Shown here piece after piece: positions 2 through 63,808 of a stretch of 64,000 nt of DNA. Within the stretch, counting starts at the first letter, position 1. Each line of letters opens with the position of its first letter. The DNA is from a virus. Location of the stretch: the IMG/VR virus record IMGVR_UViG_3300020419_000004. The stretch is one strand, 5' to 3'. A model generated the notes under the pieces. That model saw only the letters and a list, made by a program, of their open reading frames with translations. It made no database searches and had not been told where the DNA came from. Both the position numbers and the translations under genes were made by a program.

Positions 2-916
2 ACTTCCGTAAGACAGTTCACTCAAGAGTTTGACTGCGAGTTCTTAGGATCTGTTGATACATTGATAGCAGCATCTAAGTTGAGAGTATTAGTCTACGAT
101 GACATAATGACTAGCAATGCTGGTTTAGATGTATATGAAAATCCTGTAGACAACAACGATTATATTATATGTGTGGATGTATCTCGTGGTCTATCACAGG
201 ATTACTCTGCCTTTGTGGTTATCAATATATCTAAAGCACCGTGGAGACTGGTGGCAAAGTATAGGAACAATGAGATCAGACCTATGCTATTACCAAACGT
301 TATCTACAATGTAGCAAACAATTATAATAAAGCACACGTATTGATAGAAGTAAATGATATAGGAGAAGCAGTTGCTTCTAGTTTATTCTATGATGTCGAG
401 TATGAAAATGTACTGATGTGTGCTATGAGAGGTCGTGCAGGTCAGATAGTTGGACAAGGTTTCTCAGGTAATAAGACACAGATGGGTGTCAAGATGAGCA
501 AGACAGTTAAGGCACAAGGATGCTCTAACTTAAAGACTTTGATAGAAGATGATAAATTAATTGTTAAGGATTACAACATAGTATCTGAACTAACTACCTT
601 CATTCAAAACAAACAATCATTTGAAGCAGACGAAGGATATCATGATGACCTTGTTATGTGTTTAGTCATCTTCTCATGGTTAGTGCAGCAAGAATACTTT
701 AAAGAAATGACGGATCAGGACATCCGTCGTAGAATATACGAAGAACAGAAGAACCAGATAGAACAAGACATGGCACCATTTGGTTTTATAGACGATGGAT
801 TGGAAGATGAGATGATCAAAGACAGCGAGGGAAATATCTGGACTATTGATATGAATGAGAAAGAATACACCTTAGACGAGTATGGTGATAGGGCATTCAT
901 GTGGGACTATCGCTGA
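2..916 (+). CDS. gp17: Terminase large subunit, C-terminal nuclease part (5'-truncated by window edge)
   Basis: Frame is open from base 2 (TSVRQFTQEFDCEFLGSVDTL); CVDVSRG and GYHDDLVM RNase H-like motifs; lies before the tail sheath gene as in T4-like phages. Confidence 0.96.
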   Translation, partial: TSVRQFTQEFDCEFLGSVDTLIAASKLRVLVYDDIMTSNAGLDVYENPVDNNDYIICVDVSRGLSQDYSAFVVINISKAPWRLVAKYRNNEIRPMLLPNVIYNVANNYNKAHVLIEVNDIGEAVASSLFYDVEYENVLMCAMRGRAGQIVGQGFSGNKTQMGVKMSKTVKAQGCSNLKTLIEDDKLIVKDYNIVSELTTFIQNKQSFEADEGYHDDLVMCLVIFSWLVQQEYFKEMTDQDIRRRIYEEQKNQIEQDMAPFGFIDDGLEDEMIKDSEGNIWTIDMNEKEYTLDEYGDRAFMWDYR

Positions 917-51516: not shown

Positions 51517-51601
51517 ATACCCAGAAGAAAACACAGGACAACTACGGTCATCCCTACAAAACTGGGAAAAAAGTATCAAGAAATACAACAAACTTGACTA
51601 A
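51344..51601 (+). CDS. Conserved cyanophage hypothetical
   Basis: LLKEGPHQLAQAWLLGAM. Confidence 0.6.
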   Translation: MTKNDGQTSWRKEYLEMKAGLSKFQIQLLKEGPHQLAQAWLLGAMHNDYKKMKGIKDEYPEENTGQLRSSLQNWEKSIKKYNKLD

Positions 51602-51623
51602 ATAGATATGGGTATGCTAACAT
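51594..51623 (+). promoter_or_regulatory. Overlapping sigma70-like (TTGACT-18 nt-TAACAT) and late (TAAATA 51599) promoters
   Basis: Predicted sigma70 start falls at about 51630, the first base of the aptamer. Confidence 0.45.
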
Positions 51624-51630
51624 ACCTTTA

Positions 51631-51676
51631 CGTTCATCCCCAAAAGGGGGACGCAAGTAAGCCGACTCGGAACGGG
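51631..51676 (+). ncRNA. Glutamine-riboswitch-like aptamer 1 (Downstream-peptide/glnA class)
   Basis: P1 CGTTC/GAACG, P2 TCCCC/GGGGA, then CGCAAGTAAG and GAC. Confidence 0.75.
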
Positions 51677-51678
51677 TT

Positions 51679-51868
51679 CGTTCATCCTCATGTATAACAT
51701 TCTTTCCATGTTAATAGTACTCGGAGCACCACTTAATTGTGCAGATGCTAATGAGTTACTATCTTTAATTAGACCCTTTGATCCTCAAAGGTTGGAGATG
51801 GTAAAGGTGATTATTGCACATACTGATCCAGTATGTTTTGAGGACGCACAAGTTGACTGAAGGAACGG
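51679..51868 (+). ncRNA. Glutamine-riboswitch-like aptamer 2 with an ORF in its P2 loop
   Basis: CGTTCA-TCCTCA ... TGAGGA-CGCA...GAC...GGAACG. Confidence 0.65.
51690..51860 (+). CDS. 56-aa peptide nested in aptamer 2 (not in ORF track)
   Basis: MYNILSMLIVLGAPLNCADA...PVCFEDAQVD; hydrophobic N-terminus, two Cys. Confidence 0.7.
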   Translation: MYNILSMLIVLGAPLNCADANELLSLIRPFDPQRLEMVKVIIAHTDPVCFEDAQVD

Positions 51869-51903
51869 TCTAATCCACCTCATTCCAACAGGAGCAAAAG
51901 CAA

Positions 51904-52029
51904 ATGGCTAACGTCACATACCGTGGTGTCAAGTATGACACTAACAGAAGCAAGACTCAGCAATCAAACAAGGTCGATCTAGTTTACCGTGGTGTAAAAC
52001 TAAATAAAGATCTTACAGTTGCGAAGTAA
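51904..52029 (+). CDS. DUF4278-like 41-aa peptide
   Basis: Two YRGV repeats (VTYRGVKY, LVYRGVKL); AGGAG RBS. Confidence 0.8.
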   Translation: MANVTYRGVKYDTNRSKTQQSNKVDLVYRGVKLNKDLTVAK

Positions 52030-52115
52030 TGGAAGTACTATGGATCACTGCTGCTTCAGCAGTCTTCCTAACCATTATCTACGCTGAGACTTTAATCCTT
52101 TATAAGGATGCTTAA
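52029..52115 (+). CDS. 28-aa single-TM microprotein
   Basis: MEVLWITAASAVFLTIIYAETLILYKDA; TAATG coupling. Confidence 0.55.
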   Translation: MEVLWITAASAVFLTIIYAETLILYKDA

Positions 52116-52120
52116 ATCTC

Positions 52121-52154
52121 TCCCCGACTACATAATGTAATCGGGGATTTTTTT
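52121..52154 (+). terminator. Intrinsic terminator
   Basis: TCCCCGA...TCGGGGA followed by T7. Confidence 0.8.
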
Positions 52155-52307
52155 ATGCAAAGAAGTAGATTAAAGACGTTGATAACAGACCTAGAAGACC
52201 TTCTTACAGAACTGAAGGCAGAAGTTTACGCAGACAAGGACGCATATATTGACAGTGATGGTGCACAATGGTATAGTGGTGATGACGATGACGGATACGC
52301 AGATTGA
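52155..52307 (+). CDS. 50-aa acidic conserved hypothetical
   Basis: LKTLITDLEDLLTELKAEVYAD...DDDDGYAD. Confidence 0.65.
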   Translation: MQRSRLKTLITDLEDLLTELKAEVYADKDAYIDSDGAQWYSGDDDDGYAD

Positions 52308-53467
52308 AAGTTAGTATTGTTGGAGCAGGTAACGCAGGCATATTCACAGCACTCTATTACTCATGGTACGGTAGAAAGAAAGATCTTGAGGTAGAATTAA
52401 TACATGATCCAAACATACCACCCGAAGAGGTAGGACAAGCAACATTACTAGGTGCACCTGAGTTACTAGGTGCAGGATTTAACTACTACGATAATCATAT
52501 ACATGCTACCCCGAAGACAGGTATATTATATGAAGGTTTTGGTAAAGTAAATGAGAAATTTATACATGCTTTCCCTGCTAACACATTAGCAATGCACTAC
52601 TGTCCCTGTGAGGTGCAGAAGTTTGCATTAGAATCAGGTCGCTTTAATGTCGTAGAGAGTAATGTGGATAGTCCATATAATGTTGATGCTGATTATGTTT
52701 TTGATTGCAGAGGTACACCCAAAAATTTTACTGGATATACTAAACTTAAAAGTCCTATCAACTCTGCTCTCTTAGGTAAACCCAAGTGGGATAGTAAAGA
52801 GTTATGGAGTAGGCATGTTGCAACTCCTGATGGTTGGGCTTTTGTTATACCTATGGAGGAGAGTTCTCCATCACACAATGGTGCTGTTGGTTACCTATAC
52901 AATAATAAGATTACAAAAACAGAGGATGCTAAAAAAAATTTCGAGCAAATTTTTGACGTAGAGGTCAAACGACAGAAGACTTTTAAAAATTATATGCATA
53001 TGAATCCTATTGATGATAGGGTAATACTTCAGGGTAACAGACTATTCTTTTTAGAACCAATGGAGTCTACTGCAACAGAAACTTACTTGGAGTGGGCACG
53101 TCGTACGTTTCGTGTTATAATAGAAGGAGAACTCACCAAAGAGGATGCTGTCAAGGGGATGAAGAAGTATATAAAACAAATTCAGAACTTTATTCTATGG
53201 CATTATCAATTTGGATCTAAGTATGACACACCTTTCTGGGAACATGCTAAGAATATTCTCTTTCATGACCCTCTCTTTGATAAGTACCTTGATATGGCTA
53301 CATCATTAAAGTTAGAGCAGTGTGAAGAGGTAACTTACAGTGACTATAACAGTGGTGTTACTTGGAAGGGTGATGGGTATAGAGAAACAAGTCTTGCTTA
53401 TTCTGTATGGCCTCTGATGAGTTTTAAAAATTGGCATGAGGGCATGACCCTATATAAAGGAGAATGA
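52304..53467 (+). CDS. Tryptophan-halogenase-like FAD-dependent enzyme
   Basis: VGAGNAG, VGQAT, ATPKTGI, GWAFVIP, FLEPMEST. Confidence 0.85.
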   Translation: MKVSIVGAGNAGIFTALYYSWYGRKKDLEVELIHDPNIPPEEVGQATLLGAPELLGAGFNYYDNHIHATPKTGILYEGFGKVNEKFIHAFPANTLAMHYCPCEVQKFALESGRFNVVESNVDSPYNVDADYVFDCRGTPKNFTGYTKLKSPINSALLGKPKWDSKELWSRHVATPDGWAFVIPMEESSPSHNGAVGYLYNNKITKTEDAKKNFEQIFDVEVKRQKTFKNYMHMNPIDDRVILQGNRLFFLEPMESTATETYLEWARRTFRVIIEGELTKEDAVKGMKKYIKQIQNFILWHYQFGSKYDTPFWEHAKNILFHDPLFDKYLDMATSLKLEQCEEVTYSDYNSGVTWKGDGYRETSLAYSVWPLMSFKNWHEGMTLYKGE

Positions 53468-63648: not shown

Positions 63649-63713
63649 AATCGGTGGTGAAAACCACACATACATGGGACTCGAACGGATCGCCCTCCCT
63701 TGTGTAACTGCTC

Positions 63714-63808
63714 TCAAACCAAGACCTATAGGCAGTATAATACTTCGTCTTTCTATCCAGTAGTGAGGGATTACTGGAAATAAATATCGCTTCTACCCTT
63801 GAAGCCCT
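63714..63808 (+). ncRNA. PhotoRC-II-like structured psbA leader
   Basis: AAGAC/GTCTT; TCCAGTAGT-GAGGG-ATTACTGGA; GCTTC/GAAGC hairpin with loop CCCT complementary to AGGG. Confidence 0.75.

Follow-up and report, generated by a model that had tools for sequence, protein, structure and literature searches.

In a window of 64,000 nucleotides (nt) on one strand of the viral record IMGVR_UViG_3300020419_000004 (IMG/VR), we located two glutamine-aptamer cores (51631-51868) upstream of a gene for a DUF4278/IF17-like peptide. The second of these cores encloses a complete 56-codon gene in the loop of its P2 helix. The source of the window is a marine T4-like cyanophage; nrdB lies just upstream of the riboswitch locus, and the region is ~80% identical to the Prochlorococcus phages P-HM1 and P-HM2. 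Glutamine riboswitches are already known in T4-like cyanophages. We regard the anatomy of this composite RNA, namely, its cores, the split of the second core, and a nested fold, as very probable. That the leader is a composite glutamine riboswitch in the full sense, with anatomy and regulatory coupling taken jointly, has in our judgment slightly better than an even chance, and for the regulatory coupling we consider the case evenly balanced.

Two aptamer cores and a P2 helix around a gene

Related loci were gathered by scanning viral contigs for the 14-mer GACTGAAGGAACGG, which returned 120 loci. Among the 126 matches in these loci, the previously collected loci, and the window, 117 were true 3' halves. 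The comparison set comprised 116 distinct related phage loci, many of which are related to each other.

Copy 1 (51631-51674) consists of CGUUCA (51631-51636), the P2 hairpin UCCCC/GGGGA (51637-51651), CGCA (51652-51655), and GGAACG (51669-51674). In a permissive cmscan search, it scored 32.1 bits on RF01739 (E 5e-5; gathering threshold, 35 bits) and 32.6 bits on RF01704 (E 4e-6; gathering threshold, 33 bits); compared with RF01704, its 3' hairpin carries noncanonical pairs. A second CGUUCAUCC is found at 51679-51687, 4 nt after the GGAACG of copy 1 (GGUU), or 3 nt, as given in an earlier reading made from the sequence alone, if a trailing G is assigned to the aptamer. Copy 2 is composed of a 5' part, CGUUCA-UCCUCA (51679-51690), and a 3' part, UGAGGA-CGCA...GAAGGAACG (51839-51867), in which UGAGGA (51839-51844) is followed by CGCA and GACUGAAGGAACGG, ending at 51868; the open reading frame (ORF) lies between the two parts. 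All sequence elements that the sequence-only reading had described for the two copies were found where it had placed them. The sequence CGTTCATCC occurs exactly twice in the 64 kb, against 0.24 expected occurrences. As judged by eye, copy 2 offers 4 of 5 pairs (GUUGA...UCCAC) for a 3' hairpin of the RF01704 type.

Gene-free natural relatives were used as a proxy for a loop-deleted copy 2. Their compact second units scored 31.6 to 39.4 bits on RF01739, and the relative whose 3' half is identical to that of the window (L100) reached 35.1 bits, for a threshold of 35. In the comparison set, the second unit is split in 88 of the 116 loci and compact in 28; one split locus without a recognizable P2 (L085) was dropped, leaving 87 for later tests. 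Four architectures were distinguished, namely, compact-split (56 loci), which is the type of the window, split-split (23), compact-compact (18), and split-compact (9). Two compact units lie back to back in S-PM2 and AG-345-P14, P-SSM7 and AG-345-D19 share the arrangement of the window, and P-HM1 has an ORF inside both units; in P-HM2, too, both cores are split. None of the 87 split copies deviates from the words CGUUCA, CGCA, and GGAACG. The ligand contacts of the glutamine aptamer are C1:G40 and G18>G2:C39 (PMC6698751). These three words hold the contacts, which are therefore supplied from both sides of the gene, and the pocket nucleotides (C and G of CGUUC, G of the CGCA/CGGA strand, and C and G of GGAACG) are present in both cores of the window. 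The near-threshold model scores, the invariant pocket words, and the score of the gene-free relative support the assignment of both elements as glutamine-riboswitch cores, as the sequence-only reading had proposed, and both presumably bind L-glutamine.

The P2 helix of copy 2 (P2b) is paired and covaries across the gene. Counted from the junction, its pairs 1 to 5 are formed in 87, 87, 87, 84, and 77 of the 87 split loci, respectively, with the pair types U-A/C-G, C-G/U-A/U-G, C-G/U-A/A-U/U-G, and A-U/U-A/C-G, and this 5-bp helix is the same P2 as that of the compact copies. The mean contiguous P2 pairing was 5.83, compared to 4.30 ± 0.11 with partners shuffled among loci, and in a 46-sequence alignment 96.4% of the P2 cells were paired, versus 33 to 57% with slid partners. 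The covariation score amounted to 0.149, versus 0.067 ± 0.007 for shuffled data (0 of 500 shuffles). Double-sided changes were seen at three P2 pairs. In split-split loci, cognate P2 partners outscored permuted ones (5.4/6.0 versus 2.7/3.4). The centroid fold of the window RNA includes UCCUCA/UGAGGA, and A51690, the A of the nested AUG, forms the sixth P2b pair. These comparisons indicate that the long-range P2 is real and covarying; this is the helix, with the A of the ATG in its 5' strand, that the sequence-only reading had described, and the covariation in homologs that it had named as a check was thus found. A circularly permuted P2, in which the 3' strand of copy 1 would pair with the 5' strand of copy 2, was rejected, given the stronger cognate pairing; the permutation concerns P1 and P3 only.

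Probable nesting of the two cores

The sequence-only reading took the two copies for independent tandem aptamers, the first of them compact. Several data argue against this independence. (i) The linker of copy 1 begins with AGUA in 107 of 107 loci and ends with GAA in none, whereas the linker of copy 2 never begins with AGUA; since AGUA is confined to copy 1 and GAA to copy 2, loop E can form only between the units. A type-I three-way junction, with loop E flanking P3, results from joining both copies and from neither alone. (ii) The P3 helix between the copies covaries. In the short class, all five pairs of the intercopy helix AGUCG:CGACU are formed in each of the 54 loci, one of which shows a G:C to A:U change, and a local hairpin is impossible. 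The long-class helix extends over eight positions, with AGCCGACU as one strand and AGCCGACU or AGUUGACU as the other; at its eighth pair, 34 loci have U:A and 15 have A:U, and local hairpins would leave 16 loci with A.A and U.U. (iii) Unconstrained RNAalifold on 18 gene-free loci returned an outer helix, CGUUC(1):GAACG(2), and an inner hairpin, GAACG(1)-loop-CGUUC(2), where the numbers in parentheses denote the copy. The intercopy pair 40-87 was always formed (A:U in 10 and U:A in 4), and local pairs were formed in 4 of 14; the helix of copy 1 (P2a) shows double-sided changes at three pairs among the gene-free relatives. (iv) The connectors are short, with 1 nt from P3 to GGAACG(1) and 2 nt from CGCA(2) to P3, which would fit a core on the far end of P3 and could hardly reach back to a local P1. 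The linker from GGAACG(1) to CGUUC(2) measures 3 to 4 nt in nearly all loci. (v) For the window, the nested fold has an energy of -24.3 kcal/mol, versus -16.9 kcal/mol for the side-by-side fold.

The better-supported model is an outer type-I aptamer with a P3 that bears an inner, permuted core and with the gene in the P2 of this inner core (Table 1). The only local helices in the window are P2a and the inner hairpin, and P2b, P3, and the outer P1 span the gene. Of the compact copy 1 proposed earlier, the sequence words are present, but such a unit would exist only as a possible transient local fold, as its GAA and its P3 partner come from the 3' half of copy 2.

Table 1. Features of the leader and of the operon in the window
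Feature	Position	Strand	Basis
Predicted NtcA-type box GTATCAAGAAATAC (GTA-N8-TAC), upstream of the -35 element	51573..51586	+	Pattern, 76/101 loci
Sigma-70-type promoter-like site, TTGACT, 18-nt spacer, TAACAT	51594..51623	+	Pattern in window, 64/103 loci
CGUUC(1), outer P1 5' strand; partner 51863-51867, local alternative 51670-51674	51631..51635	+	RNAalifold on gene-free relatives
P2a hairpin UCCCC-AAAAG-GGGGA, outer core	51637..51651	+	Double-sided changes
CGCA (strand with ligand-contacting G) and AGUA (loop E 5' half)	51652..51659	+	AGUA in 107/107; pocket from PMC6698751
P3 5' strand AGCCGACU, pairs with 51851-51858 at 7/8 positions	51660..51667	+	Intercopy covariation (U:A/A:U; G:C to A:U)
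GGAACG(1)-GGUU-CGUUC(2), predicted inner P1' hairpin of permuted core	51669..51683	+	Fold prediction
P2b 5' strand UCCUCA	51685..51690	+	Pairing in split loci
Nested ORF, 56 amino acids, phrog_504	51690..51860	+	Coding selection
P2b 3' strand UGAGGA (codons ...F-E-D)	51839..51844	+	Covariation, centroid fold
CGCA(2), inner core ligand-contacting strand	51845..51848	+	Invariant in 87/87
P3 3' strand AGUUGACU; last U is first base of nested stop	51851..51858	+	Intercopy covariation
CUGAAG, anti-Shine-Dalgarno element in relatives	51857..51862	+	Complement before DUF4278 AUG
GAA (loop E 3' half) and GGAACG(2), outer P1 3' strand	51859..51867	+	RNAalifold
Shine-Dalgarno AGGAG of DUF4278 gene	51890..51894	+	Sequence
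Output gene, 41-amino-acid DUF4278/IF17-like peptide, phrog_5049	51904..52029	+	PF14105
28-amino-acid hydrophobic ORF overlapping the DUF4278 stop by TAATG, then terminator-like hairpin CCCCGA...UCGGGG with U run at 52123-52154	52029..52154	+	Read by eye

Nested gene, expression platform, and promoter region

The nested ORF ends in EDAQVD-stop, with its TGA (51858-51860) in the 3' half of the aptamer, as noted in the sequence-only reading. In 78 of the 88 split loci, an ATG located 3 to 5 nt after CGUUCA is in frame with a TGA inside GACUGAAGG, and in another five the stop is a TAG or TAA that faces the start codon from the 3' strand of P2. The reading frame remains open although its length varies (47 to 69 codons), the codon-position entropies are 1.30/0.92/1.47, and the median ratio of nonsynonymous to synonymous substitution rates (dN/dS) is 0.50. 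We found 45 further close homologues in metagenomes, and two cysteines are invariant. These data point to a real conserved gene under coding selection, which bears out the gene call of the sequence-only reading. The protein belongs to the family phrog_504, listed by PHROGs as of unknown function. Its AlphaFold model is a small helical bundle (predicted local distance difference test score, 75.5) for which Foldseek returned no match in the PDB; Pfam gave only a subthreshold RMMBL match, the homologues bear no informative name, and the protein atlas score was below 0.9. The label "Csm6" that the Joint Genome Institute gives to one 56-amino-acid homologue is not credible.

The first unit also bears a gene in 32 loci. 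This gene belongs to phrog_6471, has two cysteines, and stops at the TAA of GCAAGUAAG or in the P2 strand. The phrog_504 and phrog_6471 families align cysteine to cysteine (hhalign 90.9%, E 1.2e-6), which suggests that the aptamer-plus-gene unit was duplicated as a whole. With 47 to 75 amino acids, two invariant cysteines, a dN/dS of ~0.5, and membership in PHROG families 504 and 6471, the encoded proteins differ from the nonconserved peptides of attenuation-type leaders. In the second units of two loci, the nested ORF begins 81 nt (L059) and 240 nt (L104) after CGUUCA instead of 3 to 5 nt; the P2 loop of L104 measures 389 nt, with extra sequence, possibly another ORF, between the 5' half and the gene.

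The output gene matches PF14105 (DUF4278) with 28.0 bits, for a cutoff of 25.3, and encodes two YRGV motifs. A downstream ORF could be called in 104 of the 116 loci, and all except one artifactual call (L001) encode a peptide with a double YRG motif. This peptide has either 40 to 47 amino acids (M..VTYRGV.YD...YRGV) or 55 amino acids; the longer form, which has a helix at its N terminus (MNTL.LIKKQI.KAAALHDAQI) and a cysteine in its second motif (HGTFCYRG), accompanies the short P3 class. Both host glutamine riboswitch classes are ON switches on DUF4278/IF17-like genes (PMC6212724), and their ON switching is thought to relieve a pairing that masks the ribosome binding site (PMC6212724, PMC6698751). 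When the 3' half and the spacer of the phage loci were folded alone, CUGAAG paired with the start of the Shine-Dalgarno sequence in ~83 of 87 loci. In 73 of 86 loci, versus 3.1% of shuffled spacers, the spacer holds a perfect complement of CUGAAG (CUUUAG, CUUCAG, UUUCAG, or CUUUGG) that ends 9 to 11 nt ahead of the DUF4278 AUG. The alignment of the platform by RNAalifold gave no clear anti-Shine-Dalgarno element, and the CUGAAG pairing appeared only in per-sequence folding. P3 contributes its final two bases to CUGAAG, loop E its GAA, and GGAACG its first G, and the nested UGA lies within this hexamer; closure of the aptamer and masking of the binding site are therefore mutually exclusive, and a terminating ribosome would also unmask the site. 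The predicted alternative fold of the window pairs GUUGA and CGCA with UCCAAC-AGGAG. Three loci (L029, L043, and L055) have an extra insert of ~28 nt with a small hairpin (CACGGAUCACUCGAAAGAGU...) between GGAACGG and the DUF4278 binding site, giving a platform of 60 nt. A manA RNA (RF01745, 175 to 189 bits) follows ~230 to 270 nt downstream of the glutamine leader in L060 (586-780), L100 (5366-5559, minus strand), and L101 (1071-1268, minus strand).

In 64 of 103 related loci, CGTTCA follows 7 to 9 nt after the end of a promoter-like site (TTGACN-16..19-TANNNT), and transcription would start at copy 1. Of 101 loci, 76 have an NtcA-type box (GTA-N8-TAC) 53 to 62 nt upstream of their first CGTTCA, for a background of 0.03 per window; its center is ~50 nt before the putative start, which is not the classical activator position of -41.5. 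The cassette thus seems to be tied to nitrogen twice, through 2-oxoglutarate/NtcA at the level of transcription and through glutamine at the level of translation. The window also contains a palindrome or hairpin around the -10 hexamer (51610-51626, GGGTATGCTAACATACC), the arms of which covary between phages (GGTCTATAATAGACC, GTGTTAATATTAACAC, and others). In P-SSM7, the arms pair only with the help of a G-U, a hint that the hairpin forms in RNA; in 12 loci, the window among them, the palindrome also reads GTA-N8-TAC, and it could be an operator or a 5' stem-loop.

Downstream, the terminator-like hairpin at 52123-52154 has a 12-nt loop and is hence not listed by a consensus terminator scan. A strong promoter-like site (TTGACA-17-TATAGT) is present at 52249-52277, and the 387-amino-acid protein encoded directly 3' of the cassette (52304-53467) matches tryptophan halogenase (PF04820, E 1e-26). 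The sole gathering-level Rfam match of cmscan in the window is a PhotoRC-II RNA (RF01717, 63.3 bits) at 63695-63791. In cellular genomes, a specific pattern for the 3' half returned 14 contigs, of which the real matches were phage-like contigs of single-amplified or metagenome-assembled genomes and the others were chance matches; this search covered the exact motif only, and host split forms with other sequences would be missed.

Proposed mechanism, alternatives, and relation to known systems

We propose that the leader of this small early operon acts as one composite glutamine riboswitch. Its outer type-I (glnA-type) aptamer would be assembled from CGUUC(1), P2a, CGCA-AGUA, P3, GAA, and GGAACG(2), and the far end of P3 would carry the circularly permuted core formed by GGAACG(1)-loop-CGUUC(2), P2b with the 56-codon gene in its loop, and CGCA(2). 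P2b, P3, and the outer P1 could close only after ~170 further nt have been transcribed, and closure would need the absence of ribosomes from the gene start, where the AUG is part of P2b, and from the last eight codons, which contribute to P2b, CGCA, and P3 and whose stop overlaps loop E. From this anatomy, folding and translation would be expected to exclude each other, and translational feedback might result, though not necessarily by the peptide itself; both had been suggested in the sequence-only reading. Folding stabilized by glutamine would free the DUF4278 ribosome binding site, as in the type-1 and type-2 switches of the hosts; we favor such an ON switch because CUGAAG otherwise pairs with the first bases of this site in most relatives. 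The same folding would bury the nested AUG, so that the nested protein may be made mainly before closure of the aptamer or at low glutamine, and ribosomes terminating on the UGA inside CUGAAG may also unmask the DUF4278 site. Still more tentative, and in our view rather less than evenly probable, is the full form of this proposal, a translation-gated nitrogen switch with two outputs. In it, the nested protein would be made in a cotranscriptional burst or at low glutamine, a glutamine lock would then bury its AUG and expose the IF17-like site, and UGA-terminating ribosomes would provide a second, glutamine-independent route.

A number of points weigh against a composite riboswitch. In the search with RF01739 and RF01704 that the sequence-only reading had proposed, copy 1 was matched slightly below both Rfam thresholds, and the models miss copy 2 of the window, whole or as the 3' half alone, because of its 148-nt insert. 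The search motif fixes GACUGAAGGAACGG, including the GAA of copy 2, and its conservation is therefore not evidence. Two mismatches (C.A and A.C) are fixed in the long-class P3; neither strand of P1 varies, and the choice between a nested and a pseudoknotted arrangement rests on the P3 covariation, the connectors, and the energy. In the window, the complement to CUGAAG matches at only 4 of 6 positions (CAACAG), and the nested AUG has no Shine-Dalgarno sequence. Finally, glutamine binding and control of expression by the split form are what we infer, and the placement of start and stop could reflect genome economy instead of regulation.

The main rival accepts the same anatomy and holds that the gene is a passenger, with the P2 loop as a permissive site and nested translation without a regulatory role. 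Loci with and without the gene do share 3' half, platform, and output gene, a hairpin loop is where an insertion least disturbs an aptamer, and the tight packing of phage genes could explain the fused start and stop codons. We nevertheless consider a passenger possible but rather unlikely, given that the AUG lies 3 to 5 nt after CGUUCA in two homologous gene families and in four architectures, that nearly all stops fall, with hardly any spacer, within the aptamer core or the 3' strand of P2, that a gene without its own Shine-Dalgarno sequence has its stop inside the anti-Shine-Dalgarno element, and that ribosomes on the nested gene must unfold both cores. Two side-by-side aptamers, with copy 1 self-contained and only copy 2 split, appear improbable. 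This arrangement would account for the separate local matches that cmscan gives for copy 1 and for the compact copy 2 of relatives; the identical P1 strands permit either partner, and the local fold of copy 1 is probably the first to form during transcription. It conflicts with the partition of loop E, as copy 1 never has the GAA half and copy 2 never the AGUA half, with the covariation of the intercopy P3, in place of which the short class could form no local hairpin and 16 long-class loci only mismatched ones, with connectors of 1 and 2 nt that would be too short to bridge an 8-bp P3 and reach a local P1, and with an energy that is 7 kcal/mol worse.

A further alternative is that the insertion inactivated the second core, the halves of which would persist as C-terminal codons of the nested gene and as 5' leader. 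Coding could account for part of the conservation of the 3' half, which is overlapped by the final codons (D-A-x-x-D), and glutamine binding by the split form is itself deduced. Such a relic is very improbable in view of the retention of GAAGGAACGG, although it lies beyond the stop, of the covariation of P2 across the gene and its cognate specificity in split-split loci, and of the split form being the majority state among diverged phages. Least credible of all, to the point that we give it almost no weight, is a noncoding structured RNA domain in place of the gene. Local hairpins are predicted inside the 148-nt insert, but its fold z-score is only -1.7, and the ATG-to-TGA frame, which stays open in 78 of 88 loci although lengths differ, points to a coding sequence, as do the codon-position pattern, the dN/dS of ~0.5, and the two invariant cysteines.

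The composite riboswitch that we favor resembles several known systems. Glutamine-I (glnA RNA, RF01739), exemplified by the gifB/IF17 leader of Synechocystis PCC 6803 (PMC6212724), shows the core words of the phage element in unchanged order (CGUUCA, P2, CG-AAGUA, P3, GAAGGAACG) and is likewise found in the 5' leader of a DUF4278/IF17-type gene, as a probable translational ON switch in which the 3' side of the aptamer competes with a pairing that hides the site. The phage element differs in its host, in that its consensus is completed only by parts 190 to 240 nt apart, in the second, permuted core on its P3, and in the protein-coding gene held by one P2 loop. Glutamine-II (Downstream-peptide motif, RF01704), of marine picocyanobacteria, shares the pocket nucleotides, the DUF4278 output, and the hosts with the phage element, but it is a single compact unit of ~60 nt in which GGAACG is closed in a 3' hairpin as a pseudoknot. 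A glutamine-II aptamer in two pieces binds glutamine, showing that a discontinuous aptamer can assemble (PMC6698751); that split was artificial and in a linker, whereas here a natural, gene-sized insert occupies a hairpin loop. Tandem glnA RNAs have also been noted (PMC2864571). As in tandem riboswitches, the phage leader contains two ligand-binding cores, from which a sharper response would be expected; unlike in these, the cores are nested via one shared helix, and neither is complete without sequence beyond the gene. The glycine riboswitch is another tandem case.

Leader ORFs such as mgtL, in the Mg2+-responsive mgtA leader of Salmonella, provide another parallel, and an interplay between a B12 riboswitch and an upstream ORF has reportedly been studied in Mycobacterium tuberculosis. 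In both mgtL-type leaders and the phage element, translation in the leader would decide the RNA structure, and metabolite and translation signals would be integrated; mgtL-type ORFs encode short regulatory peptides in the expression platform, whereas here a conserved family of proteins of 47 to 75 amino acids with invariant cysteines is encoded inside the aptamer. Group I introns carry homing-endonuclease ORFs in peripheral loops, and there, too, a structured RNA helix closes around a whole gene. The phage RNA differs in being a ligand sensor and not a ribozyme, in the fusion of start and stop to helix strands and core, and in that its gene is not a mobility gene. A full-text literature search, with incomplete coverage that left two key papers outside, gave no description of a gene inside a glutamine aptamer or of nested cores.

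By convention, a riboswitch aptamer is a compact, contiguous, noncoding unit, and all standard searches rest on this assumption; here, a validated class is naturally discontinuous, and covariance-model scans systematically miss its split elements. The split form is the majority in our sample of a very abundant group of ocean viruses, and the data suggest that "tandem" glutamine riboswitches have been misread. The leader provides a case in which competition between a ribosome and a metabolite for one RNA can be tested directly, and it points to two small cysteine proteins of unknown function, along with an IF17-like peptide, as phage tools that may act on host nitrogen metabolism during infection. 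If the two-output switch is true, phages would have converted a riboswitch helix into a slot for a gene, with the order in which two small proteins are expressed set by nitrogen status.

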